Positions 5,823 to 42,703 of a stretch of DNA of 64,000 nucleotides are shown in pieces. Every line of letters starts with the position of its first letter. Within the stretch, counting starts at the first letter, position 1. The translations under genes were made by a program, and so were the position numbers. The notes under the pieces are model-generated. The model did no database searches, was not told the origin of the DNA, and saw only the letters and a program-made list of their open reading frames with translations. Origin of the DNA: Ignavibacteriota bacterium (GTDB lineage: Bacteria > Bacteroidota > Ignavibacteria > UBA10030 > UBA6906); NCBI GenBank assembly GCA_963843525.1, contig CAWJKM010000003.1:477033-541032 (forward strand), read 5' to 3'.

Positions 5823-6534
5823 GTCTGTGGCTCTGCTGTGGCGAGCCAAAGTGAGAGAGCACCAAAAGCGACCTTACGCAGCGAGCGGTAGGAGGAAAAG
5901 GCAGCCCATCCGTCCCCTTGGCGATCGGGAACATGTTGACTGGCATTGATGTCAGCTGATATGGCACGATAGCAGGAATTCAGATCCAGAAAGCTCCGTA
6001 CTGTCGCTGACAGACGGAGTTTTCTTTTCTAACCACCCCTTTGCCTCAGGACGGGGAAGCATGGCCCCAAGAAAAACTCTGGTATCGGACTTCGCCTGTG
6101 ACGATGATCACACAACGTTTCTTTTCGGAACACGAATGGCTATATTGGAAGTCAATCGCTCAGAAGCGCCGTCCTTTTGTGGAAAACCGTGTGTCCCTGG
6201 ATCGGCGTTTTTGTGATTTCGGGCACAGCGAGACTGGGCCGTTTTGCGCTCTATGGTACGGGTTGAAGAAATCGAACGCTGACTTAGAGGAGCAGAAACC
6301 GCAGTTCAGACATCGTGGCGTGAACCGGCGAGGCTGTCCGTCATGCCGCATTGTCGGGGGGGGGAGCACCCGTTATCGCCAATGCGGGCCCTCTTCGGGC
6401 TGGAGGGGGGCGCAAACCGAGTCCTGCAGCCTTCCTGCGTTCACCCGGCCGTTCGTCGGGTCGACGGAAAATTACTGAAGCTCTCTGTACCATGACAAAC
6501 GGATCGCGGTAGGACTGCAGGTGCCAAACCTTGT

Positions 6535-7449: not shown

Positions 7450-7471
7450 TATCTTTCTCCGGCATTACACC

Positions 7472-8389: not shown

Positions 8390-8534
8390 TCGGTCTTCCC
8401 GAGTTACGCTGAACCCAACAGGGAATTGTCTTACAACGGCTGCGACCTGCGCCGACACGATTTTCTCCACACCAAGACAGACGGAGTATTTTATCAGCGA
8501 TCTGAAGACACGGACGTTTAAGGGGAGTATCGTC

Positions 8535-9974: not shown

Positions 9975-10035
9975 GTTCAATCCAATCGATGCACAGGCGT
10001 TCTTAGCAAAACGAACTTATTGAGAGGAGTTCACC

Positions 10036-13249: not shown

Positions 13250-13312
13250 TCGATCCGCGGTCCGGTGTCCCCGGAGTCGCCAGAACGAATTCATTCCTTC
13301 GAGACCAGTTCC

Positions 13313-14404: not shown

Positions 14405-14425
14405 GCAGTGTCCTTCCCCGGTCTT

Positions 14426-15412: not shown

Positions 15413-15766
15413 GAATGTCTCTGCGTTACTGATGTGTGTGCCGCACGACTCGGGCTTCTGAAGTCTCAAAGTAGCAGGGTGGCATGGAAGATGCAACCCG
15501 CGAAAGTCGTCACCGGTGAACAGAGGCGGGTGACCGAAATATCGCAACGTGGCCCCGTGCGCCCTCTTACAGGCGATCCTTTGTAGAAATCTGGAGAACA
15601 ACCATGTAGATGTTTGTGTTTCCACTGTCTACTCCTCGTTCCTTCCTGCTCTCGATCGTGGAATACAAGCCGGAATCCTTCTTTTCCGCCTTCGCTTGCT
15701 TCATGGCATAGGATGTGACCCAAAGCACACGGATTACATCAGCAACAGAAGGGGGCAGAGACTCCA

Positions 15767-18670: not shown

Positions 18671-18705
18671 CGCGAAATCTGCTTTCCAGGAATCCCATTG
18701 AATCG

Positions 18706-18743
18706 AAAAAGGAGCCTCATGCTGGTGTGAGGCTCCTTTTTTT
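18706..18743 (+). terminator. Rho-independent terminator
   Basis: Perfect 9-bp stem GGAGCCTCA…TGAGGCTCC with an 8-nt loop, preceded by an A-tract and followed by T7. It lies 36 bp after the stop at 18670. Confidence 0.6.
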
Positions 18744-18881
18744 GAAGGACCTTTTCATTGATTCATACCGTCTGGGAGCTCAGCTCCTGTCCCACATGTC
18801 TCCCAAATCGAACAGCAGGCTCACTAATAGGCAGAATTATCAGATTTTATGATAAACCAAAAATATATTATTCGCAAAAAC

Positions 18882-18916
18882 TATAATCACTTGCTTTTTC
18901 TCTCGAAAAATATAAT
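18882..18916 (+). promoter_or_regulatory. AT-rich putative promoter region with two TATAAT boxes upstream of the second T9SS paralog
   Basis: The 18745-18970 stretch is conspicuously AT-rich in a GC-rich genome. TATAAT occurs at 18882-18887 and at 18911-18916. No experimental support. Confidence 0.3.
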
Positions 18917-18971
18917 TTGTGTGAAGTCAAAAATGTTCTGTCCCTTTAAACCCCGATCTGTGGAATCCCCT

Positions 18972-21900
18972 ATGCGTTTAGTCTGGTATACTGTGCCCAT
19001 TCTTCTGCTTTTTTGTTCCTGCGCGAAGACAGTTGCTCAGCCTGGGGTGACACGAGTCTGGGCCATTGACGACGGAGAAAAAGTCAAGCAGGATGATCTT
19101 ACCAACCCCGCGAAGACAGGGGTGAACAACCCCGTTTGGGACGGCAGTCGCATTACGTTGTTTGGAGCCAAGAATGAGACTGTTGCGTTTCAGTTGATCC
19201 TCGAAGCGTCCGGAACGGGTGCAAGTAATGTCAATGTCGTACTCGACAGTCTGGTGAACGGCACTGCCGTTATCACGAACACCGGGTCGGCTGGACCCTT
19301 TTACTACGTCGGACGCCGGATCGATCTTTTTGTCGAGCACTATACAAATGTGACGCAGCGTTCACCGTACACGGGCGGGTATGGATTCTCGAACGCACGC
19401 GCTCTGCCTGATGATGATTTCCTCGGGTGGATTCCTGATGCACTCGTCCCCTTTGAAGCTCCCGTAAAGTCACCGGCGCACGGACAGGGCGGTGCCCCGT
19501 TCCCCATCCTTGCCGGAAAGACGCAGGCAGTCTGGGTGGATATCTACATCCCGAAGGATGCTGTGGCGGGGACGTACGCAGCCACGGTGCGCGTCACAGA
19601 AGGCGGAAGCACGACCTTCACCATCCCGCTGGCACTCTCAGTGTACAACTTCAGTCTGCCCGACGAAAACCATGCAAAATCTTTTTTCAACTGGGATCTT
19701 GACCTTCTGACCGCACGATACGGAATAACATACGGGAGCCCCGGCTACTGGGACATGTTCCGTAAGTTCATGAATTTTTCGCACCGGCATCGCATTGATC
19801 TGGTGGATGGCCGGGAATCGCTCGATGGTTTTGAATCCCATCTCGCGGAGTACTATACGGGCACTGCTTATACGGCGCAACACGGCTATGATGGCCCCGG
19901 TGTGGGCGTGGGGAACAAAGTCTATTCGATTGGCACCTATGACCAGCCGAACCATGGAGATGTCTCCGGGTTTGCTCCTGCCACTGCATCCGCGTGGCAA
20001 TCTGCAGCCGACGCGTGGGAAGGATGGTTCCAGAGCAATGCACCCGACGTTCTCCGGTTCAAGTATATGGATGACGAAGGGGATGTGAAAAATCCGGCCG
20101 TCGTGCAGCTGATCAAAGACAAGTGTTCATGGATCAAGTCGAGTCCCGGCCCGGGGAAAAACCTGCATCGATTCTTTACGAAAGAATTTGTCTATCAGGG
20201 ATTCTACGACTACATCGACATATGGTCATTGTCAGCGCAACCGGGAATACGGCTCAGCGACCTGAGTGCACGCAAGCCGGCCGGTAACCTCTTCAGTATG
20301 TACAACGGCACCCGGCCGATGTGGGGCAATATGGAGCTCCTCGACAATTATGCGACGGACAGCCGGGTGAACCCCTGGATCTCGTGGAAGTACGGCGTTG
20401 ATCTTTTCTTCTTCTGGATAACTTCGTTTTACGCAGAGAATCTGCCACCCAGCCCCAACGCAAAGAACGTCTGGGATGACAACTACATCCCTGGGGGAAC
20501 CCCCTATGGATCGAATAAAGCGTGGGGCGCAGGGATGGTCTTCTATCCCGGTATCGATGTCCTCTACCCGGCGGATTCCCGCGGCCTCCAGGGGCCCATC
20601 GGATGCATTCGACTGAACAACTACCGGCGCGGTCAACAGGACTATGAATACCTCTGGCTGGCGAAACAGGCAGGGATTGATGTCTCGGCGATGGTTGATA
20701 AAATCGTTCCTCATGCTCTCGATGATTGGGGAGGTTCCTATACCAGCGCCGGCGGGTTCGACCAGCAACCTGTGTATGCAGAGCATGGCTACATTTTCGA
20801 ACAGGTACGTCGCCAACTTGCCGATTCATTGGCAAGCCATGCCGGACAAATCGTGTTTCCACCGACAGGGACGTTTAGTGTGGACCCCACCGTGCTTCCT
20901 GCAGGAGGGGGGACGGTATCCCTCTCGTGGACTTCGTCGCATGCAACTTCTGCAACGATAAACAACGGCGTCGGTTCCGTACCCCTCGCGGATAGTGTGA
21001 AGCTCAACGTCAGTTCTTCGACCTCATACGTACTGACATTAGCCGGTTCCGGAGGGAGCATCCAATACGTTGCGTCCGTCTCCGTGGGAAGCAAACCTGC
21101 GGATCTTTCCGGAAACCTTATTTCCAACCCGGGTTTTGAAGATGGAACGACGGACTGGCTCTCATTTTCCGGCGGGTCCGCCTCCTTTACCATCGCAAGT
21201 CCGAGCATCGATGGATCGAATGCGGGGAACTTGTCCGTGACCTCGACCGGAACAAACATCCAGATCTATCAGTATAATCTTTCCCTGGAACCGGCGACGG
21301 CATACGAATTGACCTTTGCCGCCAAGTGCAATTCGGGTGATTCTATGGACGTGTCCCTCGGGAGACATGATGCGCCATTCACGAACTATGGCCTGGCATC
21401 GCAGCCGGTGAAATTGACGAACTCGTGGGCGGTGTATACCATCGATTTCACCACGAAGAACTTCACCGATATTGTTTCCAATGCGCGACTTCGATTCTCA
21501 TTTGAGGCGCATGCAAAGGCCGGCGATCAATACTGGATCGACAATATCTCGTTGAAAAAGAGGTCCTCGGCGAATCCTCTCCCGGTTACCCTCTCCGTCC
21601 CCCGACTATTGTTCCCTGCAACAGGAACATCGAATCTCTCGCAGGTGGTGGACTTTGTCTGGCACCCGGTGCAAGGGGCGACGGCCTATCAAGTGCAACT
21701 GGCGCTCGATTCGTTGTTCACACGGTTCGTTGTGAATGATTCGACTGTCTCCGACACAGTGCGGCAAGTCCGGGAACTGGCATATTCCACTCGGTACTAT
21801 CTTCGGCTCCGTGCCCTCAGTCCGGCGGGAGTCAGTGCCTACGGATCCACGGCGAGCTTTCTAACGATCCCGGCTCCCCCTTCCGGCACCCTCGCTGCAC

Positions 21901-22742
21901 CTCTCCTGACAGCTCCTCCCGCTGGGGCGAAGGACCTTCCGCGGACCATCATGTTTGTCTGGGAGGAGGTCATTGGAGCAAGCAAATACTATCTCGATGT
22001 CGCAAGGGACGAGGGCTTTTCTGACCGGGTGTTGTACGATTCAGCGACGGCGGGCAGCAAAACGGTGACACTGCCTGACAATCAGACCTTGTACTACTGG
22101 AGAATCCGTGCCTCGAACGGGACGACAGCAGGACTCGCCAGTGAAATCCGATTTTTCAATACGCAAGCGGCCGTGCTGCCTGTACCGGAGGTTCAGCTCG
22201 GCGGGATTGCTGCAAGCCCGCAGGGGCTGAAACAAGATGTGTCATGGGCACGAGTGCAAGGGGCGATACGGTATCAGTTCCAATCGGCAATGGATTCCCT
22301 GTTCGTCTCGGTGGTCGTGAACGATACGTCCCTCACGGATACAACTCGCGAGCTCACGGGGTTGGCTCCCCAGACACGTTATTTCGTTCGCGTACGCGCT
22401 GTCGGGGCTGATGGCAAAAGCCCGTTCACCCCGGTAGTCTCGTTCACTACCCCCGCGGATCCGAATTCAACTTCGCCGGCGGTCTTCGCCCTTGAGCAAA
22501 ACTTCCCCAATCCGTTTAACCCCCAAACGACCATCCGGTATCATCTTCCCATCGTCGCTGCAGTAAGCCTCACCGTGTTCAATGTGTTGGGGCAACAGGT
22601 GCGGAGTCTTGTTGACGAAGTACAGAAACCCGGATCCTACCAGGTGGTTCTTGACGCCGGGGACCTCGCCAGCGGGATGTATTTCTGCTGGCTCAAGGCC
22701 GGTCTGTTCACCCAGGTGCGTCGGCTGATTCTTGTGAAATAA
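18972..22742 (+). CDS. Secreted multidomain protein paralogous to 15767..18670: same ~600-aa module, Ig-like domain, CBM-like module, three FN3-like repeats and T9SS C-terminal sorting domain
   Basis: About 70% identical to the upstream paralog across the N-terminal module (VWAIDDGEKVKQDDL…, HRFFTKEFVYQGFYDYIDIWSLSAQPG). C-terminus …NFPNPFNPQTTIRY…SGMYFCWL… is a T9SS tail. Start taken at the ATG at 18972, which gives the signal peptide MRLVWYTVPILLLF…. Confidence 0.75.
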   Translation: MRLVWYTVPILLLFCSCAKTVAQPGVTRVWAIDDGEKVKQDDLTNPAKTGVNNPVWDGSRITLFGAKNETVAFQLILEASGTGASNVNVVLDSLVNGTAVITNTGSAGPFYYVGRRIDLFVEHYTNVTQRSPYTGGYGFSNARALPDDDFLGWIPDALVPFEAPVKSPAHGQGGAPFPILAGKTQAVWVDIYIPKDAVAGTYAATVRVTEGGSTTFTIPLALSVYNFSLPDENHAKSFFNWDLDLLTARYGITYGSPGYWDMFRKFMNFSHRHRIDLVDGRESLDGFESHLAEYYTGTAYTAQHGYDGPGVGVGNKVYSIGTYDQPNHGDVSGFAPATASAWQSAADAWEGWFQSNAPDVLRFKYMDDEGDVKNPAVVQLIKDKCSWIKSSPGPGKNLHRFFTKEFVYQGFYDYIDIWSLSAQPGIRLSDLSARKPAGNLFSMYNGTRPMWGNMELLDNYATDSRVNPWISWKYGVDLFFFWITSFYAENLPPSPNAKNVWDDNYIPGGTPYGSNKAWGAGMVFYPGIDVLYPADSRGLQGPIGCIRLNNYRRGQQDYEYLWLAKQAGIDVSAMVDKIVPHALDDWGGSYTSAGGFDQQPVYAEHGYIFEQVRRQLADSLASHAGQIVFPPTGTFSVDPTVLPAGGGTVSLSWTSSHATSATINNGVGSVPLADSVKLNVSSSTSYVLTLAGSGGSIQYVASVSVGSKPADLSGNLISNPGFEDGTTDWLSFSGGSASFTIASPSIDGSNAGNLSVTSTGTNIQIYQYNLSLEPATAYELTFAAKCNSGDSMDVSLGRHDAPFTNYGLASQPVKLTNSWAVYTIDFTTKNFTDIVSNARLRFSFEAHAKAGDQYWIDNISLKKRSSANPLPVTLSVPRLLFPATGTSNLSQVVDFVWHPVQGATAYQVQLALDSLFTRFVVNDSTVSDTVRQVRELAYSTRYYLRLRALSPAGVSAYGSTASFLTIPAPPSGTLAAPLLTAPPAGAKDLPRTIMFVWEEVIGASKYYLDVARDEGFSDRVLYDSATAGSKTVTLPDNQTLYYWRIRASNGTTAGLASEIRFFNTQAAVLPVPEVQLGGIAASPQGLKQDVSWARVQGAIRYQFQSAMDSLFVSVVVNDTSLTDTTRELTGLAPQTRYFVRVRAVGADGKSPFTPVVSFTTPADPNSTSPAVFALEQNFPNPFNPQTTIRYHLPIVAAVSLTVFNVLGQQVRSLVDEVQKPGSYQVVLDAGDLASGMYFCWLKAGLFTQVRRLILVK

Positions 22743-22853: not shown

Positions 22854-24056
22854 TTGTCTCACCTTGACTCCGGAAAAAGGGGATTGAACCCTGTGGACTC
22901 AACTGTTCTATCAAGTGTTGATCAACTCATGGCGCTTCGTCCTGAGTGGGAGAGTCTTTGGGCAGAAGCAGGGGGAACTCTCTACCAATCGTTTTTCTGG
23001 CTTTCCACGTGGTGGCAGGTCTACCATGACAAGGTCCAAATGCAGCTGCTGGTTGTCCGCGACGGAGGACGCCTTGTCGGACTGGTGCCCTGCTTTATTG
23101 AGGTAATGAAGTTCGGCCTCTTCCGCCTTCGTCGCCTTCGCATGATGGGTGAATATGAGACCTCCGGAGAATACGAGCCGCTCTACCTTCCGCAGTACAT
23201 GAAGGATGTCGCCGCGGCGTCGTCGGAATTTTACGCACAACTCCTTTTGCGCAAAGAAATCGACGTCATCGACTTCCACCATTTCTCTTCAGTGTCATCC
23301 GTTTTTGAGCAGATCGTGCAGAATCTCAGGGCCGGGGGGCTCTACGTTCGTCACGAGGCTCGAAGCGCTGTTCGCCTCGTTCTGGAGACTCCTCCGGATT
23401 GGCCAAGGTACCTGGATTTGCTCGCCAGACATGACCGTCGAAACCGTGAGAAGCACGAACGGGCGCTGTTCAGGAATGGCGCGGTACTCGAAATGATCCC
23501 CTGTGCCGGTAACGAGCAAGCATTCAATGATTTCGCGCAACTGCATACCAAAGCAATGGCGGCGCGATCCATTGGAGGGCATTTCGTTTCCAAGGAGCGG
23601 TATGGTGATTTTCTGAAAATGGTCACTTTTGGGGCAACCGACCCGGAGATGTCGCGGTGGTTCTTTTTGAAGAAAGGCGACGACCGATTCGCAGCGCTTC
23701 TGGTCTTTTATACACAGGACGCATGTTGCTTTTACCTGAGCGGGCGGGATCCCATTCATGAACTGTCGCGATTGGGCCCGGGGATCGTTCTCATGAACCT
23801 TGCGATCAAAGAGGCGATCCGTCGCGGGTGCAGATCTGTCGATTTCGTTGAAGGAGGAACCGCTTATAAATTCACGATGGGGGCAAAAGACCTGGGTTTT
23901 GGCAGGATATCCATCACGCGCCGGCGTTTCACCAGTATTGTTCTCATGACCTATATCGCAGTCGTCGTTTTTCGACAGAGCAGTCTCTGGAAAGAGTATC
24001 TGGAACCCCTGGATGTGCGATGGCGTTTTCGAAGGCTGCGGCACCATAAACCGTAG
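22854..24056 (+). CDS. GNAT-fold acyltransferase of the CelD/BioF2/FemAB-like family
   Basis: …LRPEWESLW…LYQSFFWLSTWW… N-terminal pattern and overall length are typical of CelD-like acetyltransferases in exopolysaccharide loci. Start uncertain between TTG at 22854, GTG near 22893 and ATG at 22929. Confidence 0.55.
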   Translation: MSHLDSGKRGLNPVDSTVLSSVDQLMALRPEWESLWAEAGGTLYQSFFWLSTWWQVYHDKVQMQLLVVRDGGRLVGLVPCFIEVMKFGLFRLRRLRMMGEYETSGEYEPLYLPQYMKDVAAASSEFYAQLLLRKEIDVIDFHHFSSVSSVFEQIVQNLRAGGLYVRHEARSAVRLVLETPPDWPRYLDLLARHDRRNREKHERALFRNGAVLEMIPCAGNEQAFNDFAQLHTKAMAARSIGGHFVSKERYGDFLKMVTFGATDPEMSRWFFLKKGDDRFAALLVFYTQDACCFYLSGRDPIHELSRLGPGIVLMNLAIKEAIRRGCRSVDFVEGGTAYKFTMGAKDLGFGRISITRRRFTSIVLMTYIAVVVFRQSSLWKEYLEPLDVRWRFRRLRHHKP

Positions 24057-24210
24057 CCAATTCATTGATTATTCCCACCGAAATCTGTATCTTTAACAGT
24101 TTGGCTGCGAGCAATGAGCCTCCTCACCCTCGCTTCAGGGGCACAGGGGGCAGAAGAACCGCGAAGAGCCCTCTCACCTTATCCGCCAACATCCAGAAGG
24201 TAACAGCGCG

Positions 24211-24684
24211 ATGTTCTCCAAAGGGAAGATCCACGACATCGTCGTGCACGATCTTGTGAAGTTCATTGATGATCGAGGATGGCTCACAGAGCTCTATCGG
24301 GCAGATGACCTCGATGCCTCCTATCACCCGGTCATGGGCTACATTTCCATTACTCTCCCCGGCGTCCCGCGGGGACCCCATGAGCACGTCGATCAGGCGG
24401 ACAATTTTGCGTTCATCGGGCCATCGGATTTTAAGATCTACCTCTGGGACAATCGCCCCACCTCCCCCACCTACAAGATTCGGCAGACGTTTTTCGCGGG
24501 GGAAAATGCTCCCCGGTCTCTCATCATTCCCCCGGGAGTAGTCCACGCCTACAAGAACGTCGGGGGGAAACCCGGGATGGTGGTGAACCTGCCCAATCGC
24601 CTGTACGCCGGCGAGAAGAAACGATCCCCTGTTGATGAAATCCGCCACGAAAGCGACCCCAACTCTCCTTTCCTCCTGGATTGA
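24211..24684 (+). CDS. dTDP-4-dehydrorhamnose 3,5-epimerase family cupin (RmlC-like), intact copy
   Basis: 157-aa cupin with …DDRGWLTELYR…GPHEHV…GVVHAYKNVG…. Its stop overlaps the start of the downstream rmlB remnant (TTGACATG). Confidence 0.7.
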   Translation: MFSKGKIHDIVVHDLVKFIDDRGWLTELYRADDLDASYHPVMGYISITLPGVPRGPHEHVDQADNFAFIGPSDFKIYLWDNRPTSPTYKIRQTFFAGENAPRSLIIPPGVVHAYKNVGGKPGMVVNLPNRLYAGEKKRSPVDEIRHESDPNSPFLLD

Positions 24685-24685
24685 C

Positions 24686-25420
24686 ATGAAAGTAATACTG
24701 GTGACGGGCGGGGCTGGGTTCATAGGCTCCAATTTTATCCATCGTTTGCTCCGGAACGACCGGGATTGGACCATCGTTAATTTCGATGCCCTGACCTACG
24801 CGGGCAATCTCGAGAATCTTCAGGACATCGCTGCGGATCCACGGTACCATTTTGTGCGTGGCGACATCTGCGACTCCGCGAGCGTCCTCGCAACCCTGAA
24901 AAAGTTTTCCGTCGACACCATAGTCCACTTCGCCGCTGAGTCGCATGTCGACCGGAGCATCCTTGGTGCAGCGATATTTGTGAAGACCAACGTGCTCGGG
25001 ACGCAGGTCCTGCTCGATGCTGCAAGAGAGACCGGGATCGAACGGTTTGTGCATGTTTCGACGGACGAAGTCTACGGTTCTCTCGGTCCGACCGGGAAAT
25101 TCACCGAGAACACCCCGCTCCATGCCAACAGCCCGTACTCTGCGAGCAAGGCGGGATCGGACCTGCTTGCTCTTGCCTTTCACCATGCATTCAACCTGCC
25201 GATCGTTCTCAGCTGTTGTTTAATCAACTACGGACGATCGTCGGTTTCTTGAAAATGTGATTCCATTGATGATAGTGAATGCACGGAAGGACGAACCGTT
25301 ACGGTTGAGAGAGAAGGGGAATAGGCGATCACATTCCCTCGAATTGTTGTTAATGAGTCGGCTTCGCGGTACCATCGCGATTATCACGTGCCATGTCTTC
25401 CTCGCTCTGCCATCTCAAGT
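24686..25420 (+). pseudogene. dTDP-glucose 4,6-dehydratase (rmlB) pseudogene: frameshifted and truncated copy
   Basis: The first 175 aa match RmlB (MKVILVTGGAGFIGSNF…STDEVYG…YSASKAGSDLL…). The reading frame collapses near 25210 relative to the intact paralog at 28814. Nucleotide homology to the intact copy continues out of frame to about 25400 (ttcttgaaaatgtgattccattgatgatagtgaatgc vs ttccctgaaaagatgatccccctgatgatcacgaatgc). Confidence 0.7.
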
Positions 25421-25457
25421 TTAACTTGTTGCCGTCCATAGAACACTTTTCTGATAT

Positions 25458-26762
25458 ATGAATACTCAGGCGATTCTCCGGAAAATCGAATCTAAACAAG
25501 CTATCATCGGCGTTGTTGGGCTCGGTTACGTCGGCCTTCCCTTGCTGCTTTGCTTCATCGAAAAAGGATTTCAGGTTGTCGGGTTGGACATCGATGAGAA
25601 AAAGACCGCTTTATTGACCAAGGGGGAGTCGTACATAAGACACATAAGCAAAGATCGCGTTGCAGGAGCCGCTCGGTCGGGTCGTCTTCTCACGACAACT
25701 GATTTCTCGCACGCCCGAACTTGTGATGCAATTCTCATCGCAGTGCCCACCCCGCTCAATAAGAACCGTGAACCGGACATGTCGTTCATCGTAGCGACCT
25801 GTGAGGCTCTTATTCCGCACATCCGTGAGGGGCAACTCATCGTTCTTGAGTCGACGACGTATCCAGGCACGACTGAAGAGGAGATGGTTCCCATCCTGGA
25901 AAGGAGCGGTCTGAAAGCGGATAGGGACTTCTTTGTTGCCTTTTCCCCCGAACGTGAGGACCCGAGTCGAACGGATTTCACAACCGAGACAATTCCGAAG
26001 GTGGTCGGGTCCACAACGTCTGAAGGGCTCGCGATCGCCGAGAAGGTCTATCAGCAGATAGTAGTGAACACTGTTCCTGTGTCCTCCACACGCGTGGCTG
26101 AAGCGACGAAACTTCTCGAAAATACGTTCCGCGCAGTCAACATAGCGCTTGTCAACGAACTCAAAATGACTTTTACGAAGATGGGGATCGACGTTTGGGA
26201 GGTGATCGAAGCCGCTAAGTCGAAGCCATTTGGGTTCATGCCGTTCTATCCCGGCCCCGGCCTGGGCGGGCATTGTATTCCAATTGACCCGTTCTATCTG
26301 ACGTGGAAAGCGCGGGAGTATGGTGTGACCACAAAGTTCATCGAGCTTGCCGGTGAAATCAACACGGGTATGCCTGACTTCGTCATCCAACGGGCCATGG
26401 AAGTGATGAACGACCTTGGCAAGCCGTTGAAGGGGGCACGGGTGCTGTTGCTGGGTCTTGCCTACAAGGCGAACGTGGATGATGACAGGGAATCTCCGTC
26501 CTATCACTTGATCGAGAAGCTTGAGGCGCGGGGGGCAACGGTGAGCTACAACGATCCGTTCATTCCAGTGATTCGGCCCTCGAGGGAGTTTTCGCGATAT
26601 GCCGGGAGGAAGTCCGTCGAAGTGTCTCCGCAGTATGATTTGATAATTGTTGCGACCCCGCATGAGAAATACCGTTCCCTTGATTTCTCGTTGTATGACC
26701 TCCCGATTCTCGATACCAGAAACATCGTGGTCAAACGGAATCATCTTTACTTTCAGGCCTGA
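25458..26762 (+). CDS. Nucleotide-sugar dehydrogenase (UDP-N-acetyl-hexosamine 6-dehydrogenase, WbpO/TviB/WecC-like)
   Basis: …IGVVGLGYVGLPLLL… NAD-binding N-terminus, the catalytic-region motif …GGHCIPID… and a UDP-binding C-terminal domain; 434 aa. Confidence 0.85.
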   Translation: MNTQAILRKIESKQAIIGVVGLGYVGLPLLLCFIEKGFQVVGLDIDEKKTALLTKGESYIRHISKDRVAGAARSGRLLTTTDFSHARTCDAILIAVPTPLNKNREPDMSFIVATCEALIPHIREGQLIVLESTTYPGTTEEEMVPILERSGLKADRDFFVAFSPEREDPSRTDFTTETIPKVVGSTTSEGLAIAEKVYQQIVVNTVPVSSTRVAEATKLLENTFRAVNIALVNELKMTFTKMGIDVWEVIEAAKSKPFGFMPFYPGPGLGGHCIPIDPFYLTWKAREYGVTTKFIELAGEINTGMPDFVIQRAMEVMNDLGKPLKGARVLLLGLAYKANVDDDRESPSYHLIEKLEARGATVSYNDPFIPVIRPSREFSRYAGRKSVEVSPQYDLIIVATPHEKYRSLDFSLYDLPILDTRNIVVKRNHLYFQA

Positions 26763-26764
26763 CC

Positions 26765-27700
26765 ATGCGTTATCTTGTCACCGGCGGCGCAGGGTTCATC
26801 GGATCGAATATCGTGGAGGAACTTCTACGACGCGGGGAAAAGGTGCGTGTCCTCGACAACCTGGCTACAGGGAAAAGGGAAAACCTCAATGAATTTGCAG
26901 GCCGTATTGAGTTGATTGAAGGGGATATTCGCAACTACCATGTTGTGAGGGAGGCCACAGATGGCATAGACGTAATCCTTCATCAAGCCGCACTCCCGTC
27001 AGTCCCACGCTCCGTGAAGGATCCGATCACCACCAACCAGGTGAATGTCGACGGGACACTCAACATCCTTTACGCTGCAAAAGACGCAAAAGTCAAGCGC
27101 GTTATCTCTGCCTCGTCCTCCTCAATCTACGGCGACACTCCGAGCCTTCCGAAGCATGAAGCGATGGCGCCCAAGCCCCTCTCTCCTTACGCAGTCAGCA
27201 AACTGGCCGGGGAGACGTATTCCCGTGTGTTCCATGGAGTTTTCGGTCTCGAGACGATCGCCCTTCGGTATTTCAATGTCTTCGGGCCTCGTCAAGATCC
27301 GACCTCACAATATTCGGCGGTAATTCCGAAATTTATCAATGCGATCCTTCAGGATCGTTCCCCGGTGATTTATGGTGATGGAACACAAAGTCGCGATTTT
27401 ACTTATGTAGCCAATGTTGTCGAAGCAAACATCCGGGCGGCGACCGTTTCGTGTGAGACCGGGATCGTAATGAATTGTGCCTGTCACGGTCAAGTAACCC
27501 TGCTGGAACTTGTTGCTGCCATCAATTCCATTCTCGGGAAGACTATCCAACCCGAATTCTCGGACGAGCGGCCCGGAGACATCAAGCACTCCTTCGCCGA
27601 TATCGAAATGATGAAAAACGTACTCGGATTCTCTCCGTCGATTGACTTTCGCTTAGGGCTCGAATTGACGTGTAAACATTATCTGCGACTTGCGAAGTAG
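26765..27700 (+). CDS. NAD-dependent nucleotide-sugar 4-epimerase (WbpP/TviC-like SDR)
   Basis: MRYLVTGGAGFIGSNIVEELL…, YAVSKLAGE (YxxxK) and …RYFNVFGPRQDP…. The ATG overlaps the upstream stop, as in WbpO/WbpP operons. Confidence 0.8.
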   Translation: MRYLVTGGAGFIGSNIVEELLRRGEKVRVLDNLATGKRENLNEFAGRIELIEGDIRNYHVVREATDGIDVILHQAALPSVPRSVKDPITTNQVNVDGTLNILYAAKDAKVKRVISASSSSIYGDTPSLPKHEAMAPKPLSPYAVSKLAGETYSRVFHGVFGLETIALRYFNVFGPRQDPTSQYSAVIPKFINAILQDRSPVIYGDGTQSRDFTYVANVVEANIRAATVSCETGIVMNCACHGQVTLLELVAAINSILGKTIQPEFSDERPGDIKHSFADIEMMKNVLGFSPSIDFRLGLELTCKHYLRLAK

Positions 27701-28499
27701 ATGCTCGCCTTCGGATCAACGAGAAAAGGTGTTCGCGAACAATTGCCAGCCCGTGCAGCGAGCCCTGTGGAGCACGAGTGTACAACTCGGAGGGCGGGCG
27801 AACTGCCTTTATGGACGTGTCACGGCTACTTGTTTGTCCAATTTGCACGAGCTCCGGGACGTCCTCGATCGATTTTGAATTGGATTGTGCGCGGACGTAC
27901 CGGGGGAACCTCATCTCCACCTCTGTTCTGTCGGCGCCGACGAGCTTACTCGTCCCGAATTGAATGTGCCCCCCTTTCACAATCTGGTGGCTTACGTGTT
28001 CGTCCGGCGATAGGTGTCATCACTATGCACAATGAATGAGTGTGGTGATCCCAAGCGGAATCTTCGTGACCGGATCGAAATGGAGACAGACCTTCAGATC
28101 GCGAGAGATCGAGTGTCCCTTGTCCTGGCGTACCCGGTCTGGTGAATTAATGCTGCTTTGAAGTGGCGGCAAACGAAATTCAGCCGCTCTCCCAGTTCGT
28201 TCAACCCTTTGCATCAGGGAATCGGTCTTTGAGCTTTTGAGCCTCATCGGAGCCGTTTCCTTCAACTTTCCACCTTCGCCTGACGACTGATTCAATTGCT
28301 TTTGCACGGGGGAGTGCGTATTTTACAAAGCAGGCGTTTGGGACCGGGCAGGATGAGGTTGAAGGATAAGGTCTTCAGGAACGATGGGCATCCGTATTCG
28401 TCGAAACCTTCCCCGTATTCTCTTATATTTCGAAGCATATCTCCTCGTGTGATCCAAGATGTCAATTGAGCCGGGCAAGAATTCTGAGAGTCAACGAGA

Positions 28500-28817
28500 A
28501 TGTCTACTGACGGGCCCATTATGGGTGCGGTCGGTGGCGGTCTTCTCATACATTGTGATCACCGCGGATGGTTGCGGGAAGTGCATCGGAAGGGCGAGGT
28601 CGAACAGCAGCACCTTCCGGTTATGAGTTCCATATCGAGGACAACCCCCGGGACCGCGCGGGGAACGCATGAGCATGTCGCGAAGGCCGATCCAATTTGT
28701 TCTACCGGTCCGTCGGATTCCGAATACTGTTTCCGAGACGGCCGCAAATTCTCACCTCCGAATCTCATTCGCCATGAAGGCGACTCCTCCTCACCCTACA
28801 ATCTCGACTGCCTATGA
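28500..28817 (+). pseudogene. Degraded RmlC-like cupin remnant (in-frame internal deletion of the cupin core)
   Basis: N-terminus MSTDGPIMGAVGGGLLIHCDHRGWLREV… aligns with the intact 24211 copy (…FIDDRGWLTELY…). C-terminus …NLIRHEGDSSSPYNLD aligns with …DEIRHESDPNSPFLLD. About 50 central residues are missing. It keeps the same stop/start overlap with the downstream rmlB. Confidence 0.55.
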
Positions 28818-29821
28818 AGAGCATTCTCATTACTGGGGGGGCCGGATTTATAGGCTCGAATTTCATTCATCATGCCCTTGAGAATCATCCGGAGTGGTCT
28901 CTTGTCAATTTCGACGCTCTGACGTACGCAGGAAATCTGGAAAACCTGAAGGACGTGGCCACCCATCCACAGTATCAGTTCGTCCACGGAGACATTTGCG
29001 ATCAGGAGACGGTCAACTCTACATTGCAGAAATTCTCGATCGATACGATTGTGCACTTCGCAGCAGAGTCCCACGTCGACCGGAGCATTCTTGGACCCGC
29101 GGTGTTTGTGAAGACAAACGTTCTGGGTTCGCAAATTCTCCTGGACGCAGCCAGGGCGCATGCAATCGAGCGGTTTGTCCACGTCTCAACGGATGAGGTG
29201 TACGGATCTCTCGGTCCGACGGGCAAATTCACGGAAAACACTCCGTTGCACGCGAACAGTCCTTATTCCGCAAGCAAAGCTGGATCTGATTTACTGGCGC
29301 TAGCCTATTATCACACCTTCGGACTACCGGTTGTGGTGACCCGCTGTTCGAACAATTACGGCCCATACCAGTTCCCTGAAAAGATGATCCCCCTGATGAT
29401 CACGAATGCGTTGAACGACAAACCATTGCCGGTGTATGGGAACGGCTTGAACGTTCGAGACTGGTTGCACGTGAGCGATCATTGTACAGGAATTGATGCA
29501 GTGCTTCATCGGGGTCGGGTAGGGGAGGTCTATAATATAGGCGGGGAGAATGAGTGGAAGAATATCGATATCGTCAGGTTGATTCTGGAGCGATTGGGAA
29601 AGTCTGAATCGTTGATCACTTATGTTAAGGACCGGCCTGGGCATGACCAAAGGTACGCAATTGACGCGGCAAAGATAAGAAGTGAACTCGGCTGGAAGCC
29701 ACAACAGACATTTGAGAAAGCCATCGATAGTACGATCGAGTGGTACAAAAAGCATGTATCCTGGTGGAAGCGGGTGATGACCGGTGAGTATCTCCAGTAC
29801 TACGCCAAACAGTACAGTTGA
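28814..29821 (+). CDS. rmlB: dTDP-glucose 4,6-dehydratase
   Basis: Full-length 335-aa RmlB with GGAGFIGSNF, STDEVYG, YSASKAGSD and a conserved C-terminal half. Confidence 0.9.
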   Translation: MKSILITGGAGFIGSNFIHHALENHPEWSLVNFDALTYAGNLENLKDVATHPQYQFVHGDICDQETVNSTLQKFSIDTIVHFAAESHVDRSILGPAVFVKTNVLGSQILLDAARAHAIERFVHVSTDEVYGSLGPTGKFTENTPLHANSPYSASKAGSDLLALAYYHTFGLPVVVTRCSNNYGPYQFPEKMIPLMITNALNDKPLPVYGNGLNVRDWLHVSDHCTGIDAVLHRGRVGEVYNIGGENEWKNIDIVRLILERLGKSESLITYVKDRPGHDQRYAIDAAKIRSELGWKPQQTFEKAIDSTIEWYKKHVSWWKRVMTGEYLQYYAKQYS

Positions 29822-29830
29822 GCTAAATAC

Positions 29831-31528
29831 ATGGATCAAATCTTTTTTTCCCGGTGGCGATGCTTGGTAGCAGTCGTCTTCTTTACCGGTTCCTGGGTAA
29901 TACCTTCTACGTACTCGCAAACGAAACAGCCTATTACGATTCCTGACCTTCAGTCGCTAACCCAGGGGACGAAACTCCCTTCGCGCACTTTGGAAACGAA
30001 GCCGGCTGTTCCAGTGGATTCTCCTGTGGACCCCAACGAATATATCGTCGGGCCGGGGGACCAAGTTGCGATCAACGTCTGGTCGAGCTCCCCTGTTGAT
30101 TATCTCCTTACGATATCACCTGAAGGGACATTGCTTCTCCCTAATGTGGGAGTTGTAGATGTTAGGAATCTCTCCCTCGCGGCCGCGAAGGTTAAAGTCA
30201 GAGAAACGCTGGTTCGGAAGTTTGTCAATTCGACGGTGACCGTTACTTTGCAGACTCCACGCAAAGTCATGGTGGACATCTCGGGATTTGTTTTGAATGA
30301 GGGGAAGAAGGAAGTGAGCGCCGTAGAACGAGTCGATCAGCTGATCGCAGAGTGTAATGCCTTGCCGCAGGATCGCATGACGTACGAGGACTATTCACAC
30401 GAAATTCTCCGCTTGCGGCAGGCAGCCTCTGAACGGCGGATCATTATCAGGAGCAGGGATGGAACGACTCGTCGAGCGGATATCCCGCTCTACCGCGGGA
30501 CCGGGATGGGCGCTCTCGATCCCTATCTCCGCGAGGGTGACGTGATCTACGTTCCTGAACGCACGGAAACGGATCTTTCCATCGGTGTCTTTGGTAGCGT
30601 GATGGAATCTGCGAACTTTGAGTATGTTGAGGGGGACAGCCTTACAACCCTTGTTGCGATGTGTCTGGGATTCAGACAGGATTCTGATCCCGAACGCGCT
30701 ATTCTGACAAGGCTCAATGCAGATGGGAAGACCATGGACACCGTGCGGGTGAATCTGAAAGCTGTTATGGCCCACCATTCCCCCGACATCGCACTCCGGC
30801 CGGGAGATCGAGTCGTCATTCCGACCTATCCTCCGAGGCTGCAGGACTTCCGGGTATCGGTCCAAGGAGAGGTTCGCTCCCCCGGGTCGTACCCGATCTC
30901 CCGCAACGGGACCCGCGTATCCGGCATTATTGCGCTTGCGGGAGGGATAACAGATGATGCAAACCTTGGAGCTGCGGTGTTATATCGCCACAGCTATGCC
31001 ACGAGCAATTCCACGGATGCAATCAATCGGGAATTGCTCCTCAGCCAGCGGACGAATCTGGATGTCGAGGACACGGCATCGTACAGAGTGGAGTCCAGCC
31101 TCAGGCTCTCTGACGAGGTTGTTTCGCTGGATTTCAAGAGATTACTCACCAACGGCGACAGCACCCAGGATGCGATTCTACGGAATGGTGATCGTATCGT
31201 TATTCCGGCTGCGACGCGCACCGTGTATGTGTTTGGACAAGTGCGACTGCCGGGCCATATCCCGTTTGTGAACGGCTCGAGTGCAGACGACTACATCGCA
31301 ATGGCTGGGGGGTTTACCGATGAGGCCCGGACCGGTCATGTGAAGGTGATCAAAGCATCGACGCGCCGCTGGCTTGACCCTTCAGAAACCACAGTCGATG
31401 ACGGGGATTTCATCTGGGTTCCGAGAGAGCCCATTCGGCCATTTTCGTATTATATGACCATCTACGCCCAATTAGCCAGTATTGTTGCCGCGATCGCAAC
31501 AGTTGCTCTCCTGGTCAAATCTTTGTAA
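29831..31528 (+). CDS. Polysaccharide export protein (Wza-like; Poly_export plus SLBB repeats, C-terminal TM helix)
   Basis: Signal peptide, then …YIVGPGDQVAINVW…LLLPNVGVVDVRNLSL… (Poly_export motif). Several SLBB-like repeats (…GDRIVIP…, …GDFIWVP…) and a terminal hydrophobic helix. Confidence 0.7.
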   Translation: MDQIFFSRWRCLVAVVFFTGSWVIPSTYSQTKQPITIPDLQSLTQGTKLPSRTLETKPAVPVDSPVDPNEYIVGPGDQVAINVWSSSPVDYLLTISPEGTLLLPNVGVVDVRNLSLAAAKVKVRETLVRKFVNSTVTVTLQTPRKVMVDISGFVLNEGKKEVSAVERVDQLIAECNALPQDRMTYEDYSHEILRLRQAASERRIIIRSRDGTTRRADIPLYRGTGMGALDPYLREGDVIYVPERTETDLSIGVFGSVMESANFEYVEGDSLTTLVAMCLGFRQDSDPERAILTRLNADGKTMDTVRVNLKAVMAHHSPDIALRPGDRVVIPTYPPRLQDFRVSVQGEVRSPGSYPISRNGTRVSGIIALAGGITDDANLGAAVLYRHSYATSNSTDAINRELLLSQRTNLDVEDTASYRVESSLRLSDEVVSLDFKRLLTNGDSTQDAILRNGDRIVIPAATRTVYVFGQVRLPGHIPFVNGSSADDYIAMAGGFTDEARTGHVKVIKASTRRWLDPSETTVDDGDFIWVPREPIRPFSYYMTIYAQLASIVAAIATVALLVKSL

Positions 31529-31630: not shown

Positions 31631-32872
31631 ATGGAACAACAGGTGGAAAAAACAGAAACCCCTTCGGCAATGCTCATCCAGCTTCTGAGTGTATTGACAC
31701 GCTACCGGAGATTCCTTGTCCGCACGGTCGTGGGCTCCACTCTTCTGATAATTGTAATTGCCCTTTTCCTGCCGAAATGGTACAAGTCTTCTGCCTCCGT
31801 TTTCCCGGCAGAGAAAGCCGATCTCTTCGGAGGATTGGAGGGTATCGCGTCGATTGCAAAGTCAATCTCTCCGGCGAAAGCCCTATCGGCTCTTGGTGGC
31901 AATCCCGAGACTGATCGTTACCTCGCGATCCTGAAAAGCGGCACGGTTCTCACCGCTGTAATACAGAAGTTTGACCTGGTTCATGTGTATGATATCACAT
32001 CCTTCCCCGGTGAACAGACGATGAAGGAACTTCTTTCCAACGTGGAATTCACCGTCGAGAGTGAAGGGAACCTTACAATAGTAGTCTATGACAAGAGTCC
32101 GCAGAGAGCAGCGGACATGGCCAACTATTTCGTCGAGATGCTCAACAAGACGAATACCGAACTTCAGGTGCAGAACGCCCGGGGAAACCGGGAGTTCATT
32201 GAGCAACGGTACAAGAAGAATGTTGTCGATCTGGCTGCTGCGGAAGATTCACTGAGGGCCTTCCAGGAGAAATACGGGGTCATTGCATTGCCCGAACAGA
32301 CAGAGGCCGCGGTAAAAGCGGCTGCAGAAATCAGTGCGCAACTTGCCATCAAGGAGGTTCAGCTGAGTGTTCTTCTTCGCACACAAACCAACGACAATCC
32401 CGGGGTCCAGGCATTGCAGGATGAGATTGACGGAATCCGTCACAAGCTTCAGGAAATGAATACGGGGGAGGGAATGTCTGGGGGTGAAAAGGCCGTCTTC
32501 GTTCCTTTCAAGAAGATTCCTTCTCTTGGAGTGGGGTACGTGCGTCGTTTTCGGGATGTTGAAATTCAATATAAGATCCTGCAATTCATCTCACCGCTCT
32601 ATGAACAAGCGAAGGTGGAGGAGCGTCGGCAAACGCCATCGGTGCTCGTCCTGGACAAGGCAGGACCGGCAGAGCGAAAGGCCAAACCCAAGATATCTCT
32701 TTTCGCGTTGCTTGGTTTTGTTGGATCCACGCTACTTTCCCTCCTGATCATTTACCTCATTGAGGCATACAAAAAACTTCAGGCAGCCTACCCCGATCAG
32801 ATGCGGAACATCGTGGAGGTGCTCCGATCAGACTGGTTCGGATTCAAGTTGCGCCGCCGGGAAAGAGTGTGA
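31631..32872 (+). CDS. Wzz-like chain-length determinant (polysaccharide co-polymerase without kinase domain)
   Basis: N-terminal TM helix, a long coiled-coil periplasmic region (…LQVQNARGNREFIEQRYKK…) and a C-terminal TM helix. This is PCP-1/GumC-like topology. Confidence 0.6.
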   Translation: MEQQVEKTETPSAMLIQLLSVLTRYRRFLVRTVVGSTLLIIVIALFLPKWYKSSASVFPAEKADLFGGLEGIASIAKSISPAKALSALGGNPETDRYLAILKSGTVLTAVIQKFDLVHVYDITSFPGEQTMKELLSNVEFTVESEGNLTIVVYDKSPQRAADMANYFVEMLNKTNTELQVQNARGNREFIEQRYKKNVVDLAAAEDSLRAFQEKYGVIALPEQTEAAVKAAAEISAQLAIKEVQLSVLLRTQTNDNPGVQALQDEIDGIRHKLQEMNTGEGMSGGEKAVFVPFKKIPSLGVGYVRRFRDVEIQYKILQFISPLYEQAKVEERRQTPSVLVLDKAGPAERKAKPKISLFALLGFVGSTLLSLLIIYLIEAYKKLQAAYPDQMRNIVEVLRSDWFGFKLRRRERV

Positions 32873-32876
32873 GGCA

Positions 32877-34313
32877 ATGTCCGAAGGCGCTCGGATCAGG
32901 AAGAATTCTTTCTTTGCACTCTCCTCGCAACTTATTCGTTTGCTGACGAATTTTCTCCTTTTCGTAGGGATTGCACGGTACTACGGTGAGGAGGCGTTCG
33001 GGCAATTTACGACTGCACACACGTTGTCGGCAGTGTTCCTCCTGTTTGCCGATTTCGGGTTCGATATGCTCCTCCCGACGGAGATATCTCGAAACCGGCA
33101 CGCCGCCGCCGCCATGGCCCGGAAGTACTTTTCATTCAAGATTCTCTTTGCGCTGCTCGCTACAGTCGGTATGATGGCCCTGCCGCTGGCGCAGGCAATG
33201 TCGCCATCGACAAGAACCCTCGTTGAGATTTTTTCATTCTATGTTCTTCTCTCTTCTCTCAACAACTTCTTTTTCGCACTCTTTAAAGGGTTCGAGGAGT
33301 TTCAGCATGAAACGCGTATCAGCTTGGCAGTCAATGTTGTCCTTCTCACACTTCTGGTCGTGCTGGGCATTGTTCACGCCCCGCTGTACGTCATTGCGCT
33401 GGCTTTTGTCGGCACACGCTTGATTGGCATCGTCTCCTGCTTCTCTATTGCGAAACGTCTTCTCGGTGGCTTTTCGTGGCGGTTCAGCACCGAAGGCTGG
33501 GGAGAAGTGTGGAGGCATGTCGTTGTATTCGGGCTGCAGTTCGTGTTCGGAAACCTTTTCTTTCAGCTTGATACCATCCTGCTGGCGTTCTTACGCGGTG
33601 ATCGTGACGTGGGGGTCTATCAAGCTGTCTTTAAACTCGTGATTTTGACCCTGGTGATACCAGACATTCTGGTCAATACGATGGCGCCGGTCCTTTCCCG
33701 TCTTCATTCCCAGGATCGAGAGACATGGAATCGTGTCGGACGACTGCTGAATAAAACGCTCTCACTCCTTGCCCTGCCGATCGCTCTCGTGCTGTTTATC
33801 TTTCCTGATCAGCTCGTCAATTTGATCTACGGTCCGACAGCATTTCGCCAATCGATCCCAATTCTGCGGATCTTCGCCTGCACGATCCTCATTCGCTTCG
33901 AGGTGGAAGCGTACGCTCTGACGCTGACCACGTCGCATCGACAGGCGTCACGGCTCATGGTCGTCATCATTGGTACCTTGACAAATATCGCTCTGAACGT
34001 GTTCGCAATACCAGCGTACGGTCCGATTGGAGCCGCATTCGTCTCCCTCTTCACCAATCTGCTGGTGGGGATTGGCTACGTCGTGACCTCTAAGCAATCT
34101 GTTCTTGAATGGACCTTCAATCCCCGGATTCTTGTCGTCTCTGGATTTGGATTGTGCGCTGCTGCGGGGCTTTGGCAAGTGCGGAACATCTCGATGTTCT
34201 ATACCGTTCCCGTGCTGGTTGCGTTCTATGGCGGTCTTCTGTATTTCGTCGGATTCACTCGCGATGAATGGTCACTTTTCCTCACTGGCAAACGTCGCTC
34301 TTCCCTCGTGTGA
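32877..34313 (+). CDS. Wzx-type flippase (polysaccharide biosynthesis protein, MOP superfamily)
   Basis: …ALSSQLIRLLTNFLLFVGIARYYG…FGQF… is the classic Wzx N-terminus, with about 12 TM helices. Internal ATG at 32877 chosen directly after the upstream stop. Confidence 0.7.
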   Translation: MSEGARIRKNSFFALSSQLIRLLTNFLLFVGIARYYGEEAFGQFTTAHTLSAVFLLFADFGFDMLLPTEISRNRHAAAAMARKYFSFKILFALLATVGMMALPLAQAMSPSTRTLVEIFSFYVLLSSLNNFFFALFKGFEEFQHETRISLAVNVVLLTLLVVLGIVHAPLYVIALAFVGTRLIGIVSCFSIAKRLLGGFSWRFSTEGWGEVWRHVVVFGLQFVFGNLFFQLDTILLAFLRGDRDVGVYQAVFKLVILTLVIPDILVNTMAPVLSRLHSQDRETWNRVGRLLNKTLSLLALPIALVLFIFPDQLVNLIYGPTAFRQSIPILRIFACTILIRFEVEAYALTLTTSHRQASRLMVVIIGTLTNIALNVFAIPAYGPIGAAFVSLFTNLLVGIGYVVTSKQSVLEWTFNPRILVVSGFGLCAAAGLWQVRNISMFYTVPVLVAFYGGLLYFVGFTRDEWSLFLTGKRRSSLV

Positions 34314-42670: not shown

Positions 42671-42703
42671 GGAATGAGCCAACAAAACCGCAAAGGTGTC
42701 GTA

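Follow-up and report, generated by a model that had tools for sequence, protein, structure and literature searches.

Gene-block exchange in polysaccharide loci, with displaced genes left behind as remnants, has been described in enterobacterial O-antigen loci: Salmonella groups B1 and D1 carry wzy remnants, and group D2 came about when D1 and E clusters recombined (PMC3715488). We describe here an arrangement that would extend this known principle to an uncultured Bacteroidota/Ignavibacteria-like metagenome-assembled genome (MAG). In a stretch of 64 kb (the window; contig CAWJKM010000003.1, positions 477,033 to 541,032, forward strand, part of a contig of ~800 kb), two cupin-rmlB gene pairs, each with one dead member, flank a WbpO/WbpP-like dehydrogenase-epimerase pair. 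The reading we lean toward, if only modestly, is that recombination has scarred the conserved 5' edge of a variable exopolysaccharide (EPS) locus, a foreign block having been imported and having cut the resident rmlB. As in O-antigen and capsule clusters, conserved sugar-pathway genes form the boundary of a variable polysaccharide locus, a gene block would have been exchanged, and nonfunctional remnants of displaced or redundant genes lie at the junction, their degrees of degradation recording the order of events. Unlike in Salmonella, the junction has no insertion sequence (IS) or H-repeat element, and the unit that bears the remnants is cupin-rmlB, not wzy.

The genes in question have counterparts in well-known pathways. 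WbpO/WbpP of Pseudomonas aeruginosa O6 and TviB/TviC of the Salmonella Typhi Vi locus are pairs of a UDP-GlcNAc 6-dehydrogenase and a C4-epimerase. The window pair resembles them in having adjacent dehydrogenase and epimerase genes in the same order, and its best named NCBIfam matches are TviB and TviC; it differs in lying far below the equivalog cutoffs of both, and its substrate and product are only predicted. The flanking pairs recall the rmlBDAC/rmlABCD operons. The intact rmlB is a bona fide RmlB, and in two other loci that hold the cupin (L048 and L066) the gene order is rmlA-cupin-rmlD-rmlB. Unlike those operons, the window links just the cupin and rmlB, beside wza, and the intact cupin is ~25 residues shorter than canonical RmlC and appears to have Asp at the position of the active-site Lys.

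Anatomy of the locus

The features discussed below are, in order along the window:

22854-24056, + strand: AT6, an Acetyltransf_6 (FemAB-like) gene with a PF13480 match; left neighbor of the cupin, conserved in the closest relatives
24211-24684, + strand: cupin1, an intact short RmlC-family cupin of 157 amino acids (aa) with a PF00908 match
24686-25320, + strand: rmlB1 remnant, the 5' two-thirds of a dTDP-glucose 4,6-dehydratase gene; TIGR01181 below cutoff
25321-25457, no strand: junction DNA, 46% GC, the presumed left end of the imported block
25458-26762, + strand: WbpO/TviB-like nucleotide-sugar 6-dehydrogenase; TIGR03026 above cutoff
26765-27700, + strand: WbpP/TviC-like C4-epimerase of the short-chain dehydrogenase/reductase (SDR) type with a PF01370 match
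27701-28499, no strand: ~800-bp spacer without recognizable content; gene, RNA, and similarity scans empty
28500-28817, + strand: cupin2 remnant, open over 105 codons and lacking 54 through an in-frame deletion
28814-29821, + strand: rmlB2, an intact dTDP-glucose 4,6-dehydratase; TIGR01181 above cutoff
29831-31528, + strand: Wza-like polysaccharide export protein with PF02563 and SLBB domains; right neighbor of rmlB, conserved in relatives
31631-32872, + strand: wzz, from the map of open reading frames (ORFs)

An earlier note on this DNA had recognized the intact RmlC-like cupin, the WbpO/WbpP-like pair (25458-27700) followed by ~800 bp of noncoding DNA between the copies, the survival of each functional gene exactly once, and an origin of the arrangement by recombination. 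All of this stands: cupin1 matches PF00908 at 33.3 bits (gathering cutoff, 27) and keeps all 51 of the 51 residues invariant in its family, and there are two pairs with one dead member each. The note also gave both copies the same 4-nucleotide (nt) stop/start overlap. That overlap exists, as ATGA at 28814-28817, only in copy 2, where the cupin2 stop overlaps the rmlB2 start; copy 1 reads TGA-c-ATG, with the stop at 24682-24684 and the start at 24686.

The second rmlB is complete. It scores 501.5 bits against TIGR01181, above the equivalog cutoff of 365.1, and keeps 105 of 108 family-invariant residues. The first scores 244.1 bits, below that cutoff, and matches only positions 2 to 183 of the 321 in the model. 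Its reading frame, starting at 24686, is open for 188 codons, to a stop at 25250-25252; it stays in frame with copy 2 until 25238 and is shifted by a 1-nt insertion at ~25239. Local nucleotide alignment pairs 24640-25238 with 28767-29366 and then 25240-25300 with 29367-29427, at 70% identity. The frameshift was therefore correctly seen at the outset, but rmlB had been traced to about 25420, and its protein-level traces in fact reach only ~25320 (residue 211 of 335), leaving the 3' third (~124 codons) gone. The similarity of 25321-25457 to rmlB was no higher than that of shuffled sequence, and searches for rmlB homology found no remnant of the 3' part anywhere.

Both copies retain the SDR hallmarks GGAGFIG (the NAD-binding GxxGxxG) and YSASK (the catalytic YxxxK), but only rmlB2 has the C-terminal substrate-binding domain, which copy 1 lacks past about residue 211. 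Within the part that is left, rmlB1 keeps 71 of 76 family-invariant residues; one of its losses is shared with rmlB2 and three are clustered within 6 codons of the frameshift. The palindrome ACGGACGATCGTCGGT at 25230-25245 lies exactly on the frameshift and adjoins this three-substitution cluster at invariant residues (CSNNYGP to CLINYGR), which points to a local mutational event. With its frame shifted and ~124 codons missing, essential parts are gone, and since these losses are reproduced in independent sequence data (see below), rmlB1 is classed by its missing parts as a gene remnant.

The cupin2 frame aligns with residues 1 to 86 and 141 to 157 of cupin1. The in-frame deletion, first put at ~50 aa, comprises residues 87 to 140 (54 codons) and takes out the invariant P.GVVH.Y.N core with its GVVHAY motif. 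Fifteen invariant positions fall in the deletion; among the 36 left, 28 are kept and 8 are substituted. No match of cupin2 to Pfam or NCBIfam reached any cutoff. Its best match among 1.84 billion representative proteins was 45% identical (E = 3.5e-13), and the JGI metagenomes gave no closer relative, just one ordinary family member at 42%. Because residues 3 to 87 are collinear in the database matches with the N terminus of ordinary family members of ~157 aa, cupin2 is a degraded member of that family rather than a short family conserved in its own right. Identity to functional cupins is ~60% at first and second codon positions, compared with 0.87 to 0.95 between functional pairs. These losses, too, are reproduced independently, and on the same count cupin2 is a gene remnant. 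For annotation, the lesson is that the 188-aa and 98/105-aa ORFs, which automatic pipelines call as genes, are remnants.

The arrangement in independent sequence data

A sequencing error in the frameshift and a collapsed-repeat misassembly had both been named as possible sources of the pattern. The two-copy arrangement is not an error of either kind. Locus L083 (GCA_049587695.1, from a different sample) matches 23129-27089 at 99.37% identity with 0 gaps, and L084 (a Logan assembly of SRR28023524) matches 23654-25233 at 99.4% with no gaps; in both, the same 188-codon cut-off rmlB1 frame precedes the same dehydrogenase. Logan assemblies of ERR12037368 and ERR11594405 contain cupin1, a 205-aa shortened product, and the dehydrogenase, and other contigs of these two assemblies contain the epimerase, a gap, a 98-aa ORF, a 335-aa RmlB, and Wza. 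Every spacing is as in the window, and both junctions are reproduced. The ERR runs may be the source data of the window itself; SRR28023524 and GCA_049587695.1 belong to a different project.

An artifact, be it an error that shifted the frame or a repeat that was chimeric or collapsed, is thus barely conceivable. Indel errors may occur in this data set, to judge from the assembly of one relative (L002), in which rmlB has an isolated frameshift. The other study, however, has 0 gaps over the frameshift and the junction; the reassemblies of two runs give the 205-aa product and the 98-aa plus 335-aa pair at equal spacing; rmlB1 has physically lost its 3' third, and cupin2 has lost 54 codons, which is more than a shift of frame; and copies that are 70% identical cannot collapse in assembly. 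The L002 gene (10476-11490 of ERZ25039489 contig_125022) is intact except for its single frameshift at about codon 20, which reflects either an indel error of long reads or a separate inactivation of very recent date.

Gene order in relatives

The earlier note had proposed comparison with syntenic loci in relatives as a way to find an uninterrupted arrangement, and such an arrangement was found. The closest relatives on long contigs are L001, L002, and L003, whose cupins are 82 to 85% identical to cupin1. Their gene order is GT2 (on the minus strand), two GH123-like proteins linked to the type IX secretion system (T9SS), Acetyltransf_6, cupin, rmlB, wza, and wzz. The two flanks of the window are each collinear with this order, in which nothing lies between the cupin and rmlB. 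AT6 occupies the equivalent position in all three, at 52 to 53% amino acid identity, and L088 likewise has a cupin-rmlB-wza-wzz core. Of the 82 genome loci with the cupin, ~30 show one cupin-rmlB-wza triad each; a second cupin-rmlB pair or an inserted wbpO/wbpP occurs in none. Judged by these relatives, the ancestral locus is an uninterrupted acetyltransferase-cupin-rmlB-wza.

The two flanks of the insert have different nearest relatives. On the left, the window proteins are closest to L001 to L003: the GH123-like proteins are 71 to 78% identical, and the rmlB1 remnant is 81 to 82% identical (L001 and L003). On the right, identities to L088 are 52% for wza, 63% for wzz, and 38% for wzx, compared with 39%, 39%, and 25% to L001; wza of L002 is also only 39% identical.

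Age of the two copies

Over 184 shared codons, rmlB1 and rmlB2 are 77% identical in amino acids (77 to 79%) with a nonsynonymous divergence (dN) of 0.14, and their identities at codon positions 1, 2, and 3 are 0.83, 0.91, and 0.35. By these figures the similarity is far beyond chance, and the synonymous sites are saturated under strong purifying selection, as they are in rmlB1 versus L001, L003, or L088. Both copies encoded working enzymes for most of their divergence. Because the synonymous sites are saturated, the copies diverged at least as long ago as the L001, L003, and L088 genomes, and there was no recent duplication. The suggestion that the copies are old or came from different sources is borne out by the saturated third positions. 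The identity of 60 to 65% attributed to them is right for the cupin part (~62% by pairwise nucleotide alignment) and too low for the rmlB part (70%). Recent gene conversion between the rmlB copies was considered and rejected: a stretch of 46 identical amino acids is just ~80% identical in nucleotides, as saturated third positions would have it.

The two inactivations differ greatly in age. From the comparisons above, the cupin2 remnant is old or very fast evolving, and the rmlB1 remnant, whose identity at first and second codon positions is like that between functional genes, is young. Symmetrical reciprocal decay after duplication, the history first proposed, does not fit an rmlB1 that has barely decayed and a cupin2 that is heavily diverged; nor does it fit 30 of 30 related cupin-rmlB loci that have a single pair, or flanks with different nearest relatives. 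The unequal decay fits an imported block whose cupin was already dead and a resident rmlB that was cut by the import.

Proposed import of a foreign block and alternative histories

Before the import, the resident order would have been acetyltransferase, RmlC-like cupin, rmlB, and wza. A block from a related but distinct lineage would then have brought in wbpO-wbpP, the ~800 bp of dead DNA, an already degenerate cupin, a functional rmlB, and the downstream export and assembly genes (wza, wzz, wzx, wzy, and others). An illegitimate joint of its left end, at about codon 211 of the resident rmlB, would have removed the 3' third of that gene, and homology farther downstream presumably served to join its right end. 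For the dTDP-4-keto-6-deoxyglucose and epimerase steps, the cell would now depend on cupin1, which is resident, and on rmlB2, which is imported, most likely toward dTDP-L-rhamnose, and would have gained the synthesis of a UDP-N-acetyl-hexosaminuronic acid through WbpO/WbpP. We infer the direction and mechanism of the import, its right-hand junction, and the enzyme specificities; the anatomy and its presence in independent assemblies, the gene order of relatives, the old divergence of the copies, their unequal decay, and the discordant flanks are observed.

We favor import because the relatives all have a single pair, because the flanks are discordant, and because both the GC content at third codon positions (GC3) and the density of single nucleotide polymorphisms (SNPs) show a step. 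GC3 is 0.67 for rmlB1 and 0.70 for cupin1, compared with 0.70 to 0.72 for housekeeping genes; it is 0.60 for rmlB2 and 0.57 to 0.63 for wbpO, wbpP, wza, and wzz. Comparison of the window with L083 gives 24 SNPs for the 2,329 bp left of 25458 and 1 for the 1,632 bp right of it (Fisher P = 4e-5); the SNPs are dense up to 25236, with nearly none in 25458-27089. The junction between the rmlB remnant and wbpO therefore divides blocks of different population history. The abrupt end of rmlB homology at ~25320, with no 3' remnant, also counts for import, and the cut-off has the look of the insertion point and not of slow decay.

Several observations weigh against this interpretation. Hypervariability of the downstream EPS genes is seen even when L001 is compared with L002 (47% for wzz), so that the discordance of the flanks is weaker evidence than it looks. 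The GC3 difference is marginal (~2 standard deviations by our own estimate), and the SNP contrast comes from one pair of strains and covers the left junction only. A bootstrapped neighbor-joining tree of 175 shared RmlB residues did not separate duplication from xenology, as only 40% of replicates made rmlB1 and rmlB2 sisters; a previous tree of fewer taxa grouped rmlB1 with L001 and L003. No donor lineage was found: rmlB2 has no non-self relative above 77% among 5.8 billion proteins, and cupin2 has none above ~45 to 48% among the 1.84 billion representatives. Neither junction has a mobile-element, IS, or repeat signature.

The tree bears on a second history, an ancient in situ tandem duplication of cupin-rmlB in which cupin2 was lost early, both rmlB genes were long kept, and a later insertion of wbpO-wbpP cut rmlB1. 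The repeat unit starts exactly at the cupin start in both copies, with the same order and orientation, and the unequal ages of the remnants suit successive losses. The two rmlB copies group as sisters at the bootstrap level just given and share a rare HANSPY variant, but this variant also occurs in a protein of another genome (P0127). With saturated synonymous sites, the duplication would have to predate the split from L001, L003, and L088, and the single pairs elsewhere would require many independent losses. There is also no obvious reason to keep two functional rmlB genes 4 kb apart for so long, and the flank discordance, the GC3 step, and the SNP step at the junction are not predicted. We regard this history as unlikely.

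Single-crossover integration produces direct repeats of the homologous segment around the insert, one copy of which is truncated. The anatomy of the window would fit such a Campbell-type event, in which a circularized foreign fragment carrying wbpO-wbpP and partial cupin-rmlB homology crossed over near the cupin/rmlB boundary. Direct repeats with one truncated copy would be expected, and both intact genes would survive automatically, with cupin1 and rmlB2 resident and both remnants derived from the donor. The remnants, however, lack a common history: rmlB1 is nearly undecayed, has backbone-like GC3, and belongs to the SNP-rich block with AT6 and cupin1, whereas cupin2 is heavily diverged. The supposedly resident rmlB2 has GC3 like that of the downstream block and is no closer to L001 than to L088. 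Homologous crossover between sequences that are just 70% identical is, in general, unlikely. We give this mechanism little credence.

The arrangement is, in our reading, an ordinary gene-block exchange scar of a bacterial surface-polysaccharide locus. If the foreign block was imported as proposed, EPS loci of uncultured Bacteroidota/Ignavibacteria-like bacteria would diversify by exchange of downstream blocks anchored at a conserved cupin-rmlB-wza edge, and the displaced genes would persist as datable remnants.

Possible functions of the remnants

Eight codons of the rmlB1 remnant differ between the window and L083, and 6 of the differences are synonymous and 2 nonsynonymous. By a binomial estimate, at least 6 synonymous changes in 8 would occur with P of ~0.01 under neutrality, a figure based on two strains and small numbers. 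Mostly synonymous SNPs are unexpected of a neutrally evolving pseudogene; they could be due to chance, to selection that still acts on the 188-aa fragment, or to recombination with alleles of the population that still function. The L083 strain keeps the ancestral Pro at rmlB1 codon 184.

The cupin2 frame has remained open despite its divergence. In simulations, 105 codons free of stops had a probability of 0.11 to 0.16 at 0.3 to 0.4 substitutions per site, a figure that excludes the 1-in-3 chance of the deletion being in frame. The open frame and the ATGA are suggestive, though not demonstrative, of selection for translational coupling to rmlB2.

The remnants might on these grounds not be inert. 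The cupin2 frame would act as a translated leader that couples ribosomes onto rmlB2, and the 188-codon RmlB1 fragment (a Rossmann domain plus YxxxK) would be under purifying selection, as the mostly synonymous strain differences would allow, and would act alone or by heterodimerizing; separately, the cupin family would be an uncharacterized type of RmlC. As a whole, we find this combination quite doubtful.

cupin1, its family, and the sugar pathway

The most useful by-product of the analysis is the 157-aa cupin itself, which is widespread, highly conserved, and experimentally uncharacterized. Because its score against the RmlC equivalog TIGR01221 is 22 bits, well short of the cutoff of 155.75, we file cupin1 as an RmlC-family cupin and not as an RmlC equivalog. 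Its family has >4,700 homologues, 60 to 85% identical across phyla, in Bacteroidota/Ignavibacteriota-like MAGs, Geobacteraceae, Acidobacteria (Pyrinomonadaceae), Calditrichia, and Planctomycetes (Gemmataceae).

An AlphaFold2 model of cupin1 (predicted local distance difference test, pLDDT, 89.7; predicted template-modeling score, pTM, 0.85) has the RmlC-like jelly-roll fold. The top Foldseek matches in the PDB are all NDP-4-keto-sugar epimerases: StrM, EvaD, NovW, RmlC, and ChmJ, at template-modeling (TM) scores of 0.63 to 0.77. The best two-way match to the model, with TM of 0.77 in both directions and 157 residues modeled, is 3ejk, a structural-genomics "dTDP sugar isomerase" of Desulfovibrio desulfuricans G20. 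It is also the best sequence match to cupin1 in the PDB, yet at 21% identity, and 3ejk itself has no assay.

We take the catalytic residues of RmlC (Salmonella numbering) to be His63 as base, Lys73, and Tyr133 as acid. His57 of cupin1, which is invariant in the family, aligns with His63. Lys73 is matched by the invariant Asp64 in two alignments, one with StrM and one, profile based, with an RmlC probe sequence. The region of Tyr133 did not align with cupin1, and Tyr132 of cupin1 is not invariant in the family.

Gene context adds to this picture. The cupin stands directly after rmlA in ~45 loci (including Geobacter and Acidobacteria) and next to rmlB in ~30, and a canonical rmlC lies within 10 kb in just 1 of the loci searched. 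The RmlA, RmlD, and RmlC sequences used in this search served as probes only. On this evidence, cupin1 is probably a dTDP-4-keto-6-deoxyhexose epimerase. We read the 157-aa cupin as the putative RmlC-type epimerase of these organisms, and in many phyla it seems to take the part of RmlC.

The absence of rmlA and rmlD had been taken as a sign that the intact rmlB and the cupin may serve a nonrhamnose pathway. Neither gene was found in the 64-kb window, where rmlB alone is linked to the cupin, and the relatives too lack both within 10 kb. The conclusion drawn from this is not supported, because a gap in 64 kb of a contig of ~800 kb carries little weight, because the cupin occupies the rmlC slot of rml operons elsewhere and because the window contains a putative rhamnosyltransferase (12440-13249). 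The sole nucleotidyltransferase of the window (2737-3510) is the glucose-1-phosphate cytidylyltransferase RfbF (TIGR02623, 368 bits).

RfbF belongs to a second sugar pathway upstream, at 2737-5822 and 10036-12443, together with an SDR protein and three proteins with sugar C-methyltransferase domains (Methyltransf_14 in all three and Methyltransf_13 also in two). The domain content of this set suggests a CDP-linked branched or methylated deoxysugar. At 42674-43807 there is a DegT/DnrJ-type aminotransferase with below-cutoff matches to PseC and to dTDP-4-amino-4,6-dideoxy-sugar transaminases, and the RmlB product could feed an amino-deoxysugar branch as well.

The inserted pair, the junction, and the spacer

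The dehydrogenase scores 424.7 bits against TIGR03026 (cutoff, 189.8) and 243.2 bits against the TviB equivalog, below its cutoff of 592. The epimerase matches PF01370 and scores 266.3 bits against the TviC equivalog, below its cutoff of 760. Because the general families are matched and the equivalog cutoffs are not reached, we label the pair only WbpO/WbpP-like. The nearest dehydrogenase homologues are 79 to 87% identical, lie in other, unrelated EPS loci beside a wbpP-like gene, and are annotated as UDP-N-acetyl-D-glucosamine dehydrogenase; the epimerase is 69% identical to the partner gene in L085. The pair plausibly adds a UDP-HexNAc uronic acid to the repertoire, with UDP-GlcNAc as the predicted substrate.

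The junction DNA (25321-25457) has no similarity to rmlB or to any fetched locus. In the spacer (27701-28499), ORFs gave no Pfam match, there was no Rfam match, and other gene callers found no gene. By blastn and six-frame translations, the spacer resembles none of 89 loci, nor does it resemble the DNA upstream of cupin1. Nothing was found by tblastn with the AT6, rmlB, cupin, wbpO, and wbpP proteins and the L085 neighbors (Epimerase_2 and Wzx). Promoter- or terminator-like sites are not in excess, and a repeat scan gave nothing above chance. The upstream acetyltransferase as a part of the duplicated unit was considered and rejected, since no trace of AT6 was found ahead of cupin2.

Neighboring gene sets

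The window has two polysaccharide gene sets side by side, at 1-15625 and 24211-47096. Each set has its own initiating Bac_transf gene (1067-2623 and 41276-42670) and its own flippase (8199-9974 and 32760-34313), and between them lie the two large GH123-like T9SS-secreted proteins (15767-22742). Near the right end of the second set, a 664-aa ORF (45102-47096) has a GT2 domain, a CoA_binding_3 domain, and no more than the final ~45 residues of a Bac_transf domain; it may have arisen by fusion, or it may be a sugar-transferase gene that was rearranged. Just before it, at 44594-45058, a gene of the 23S rRNA-intervening-sequence protein family (PF05635, 127.8 bits) stands amid glycosyltransferase genes.

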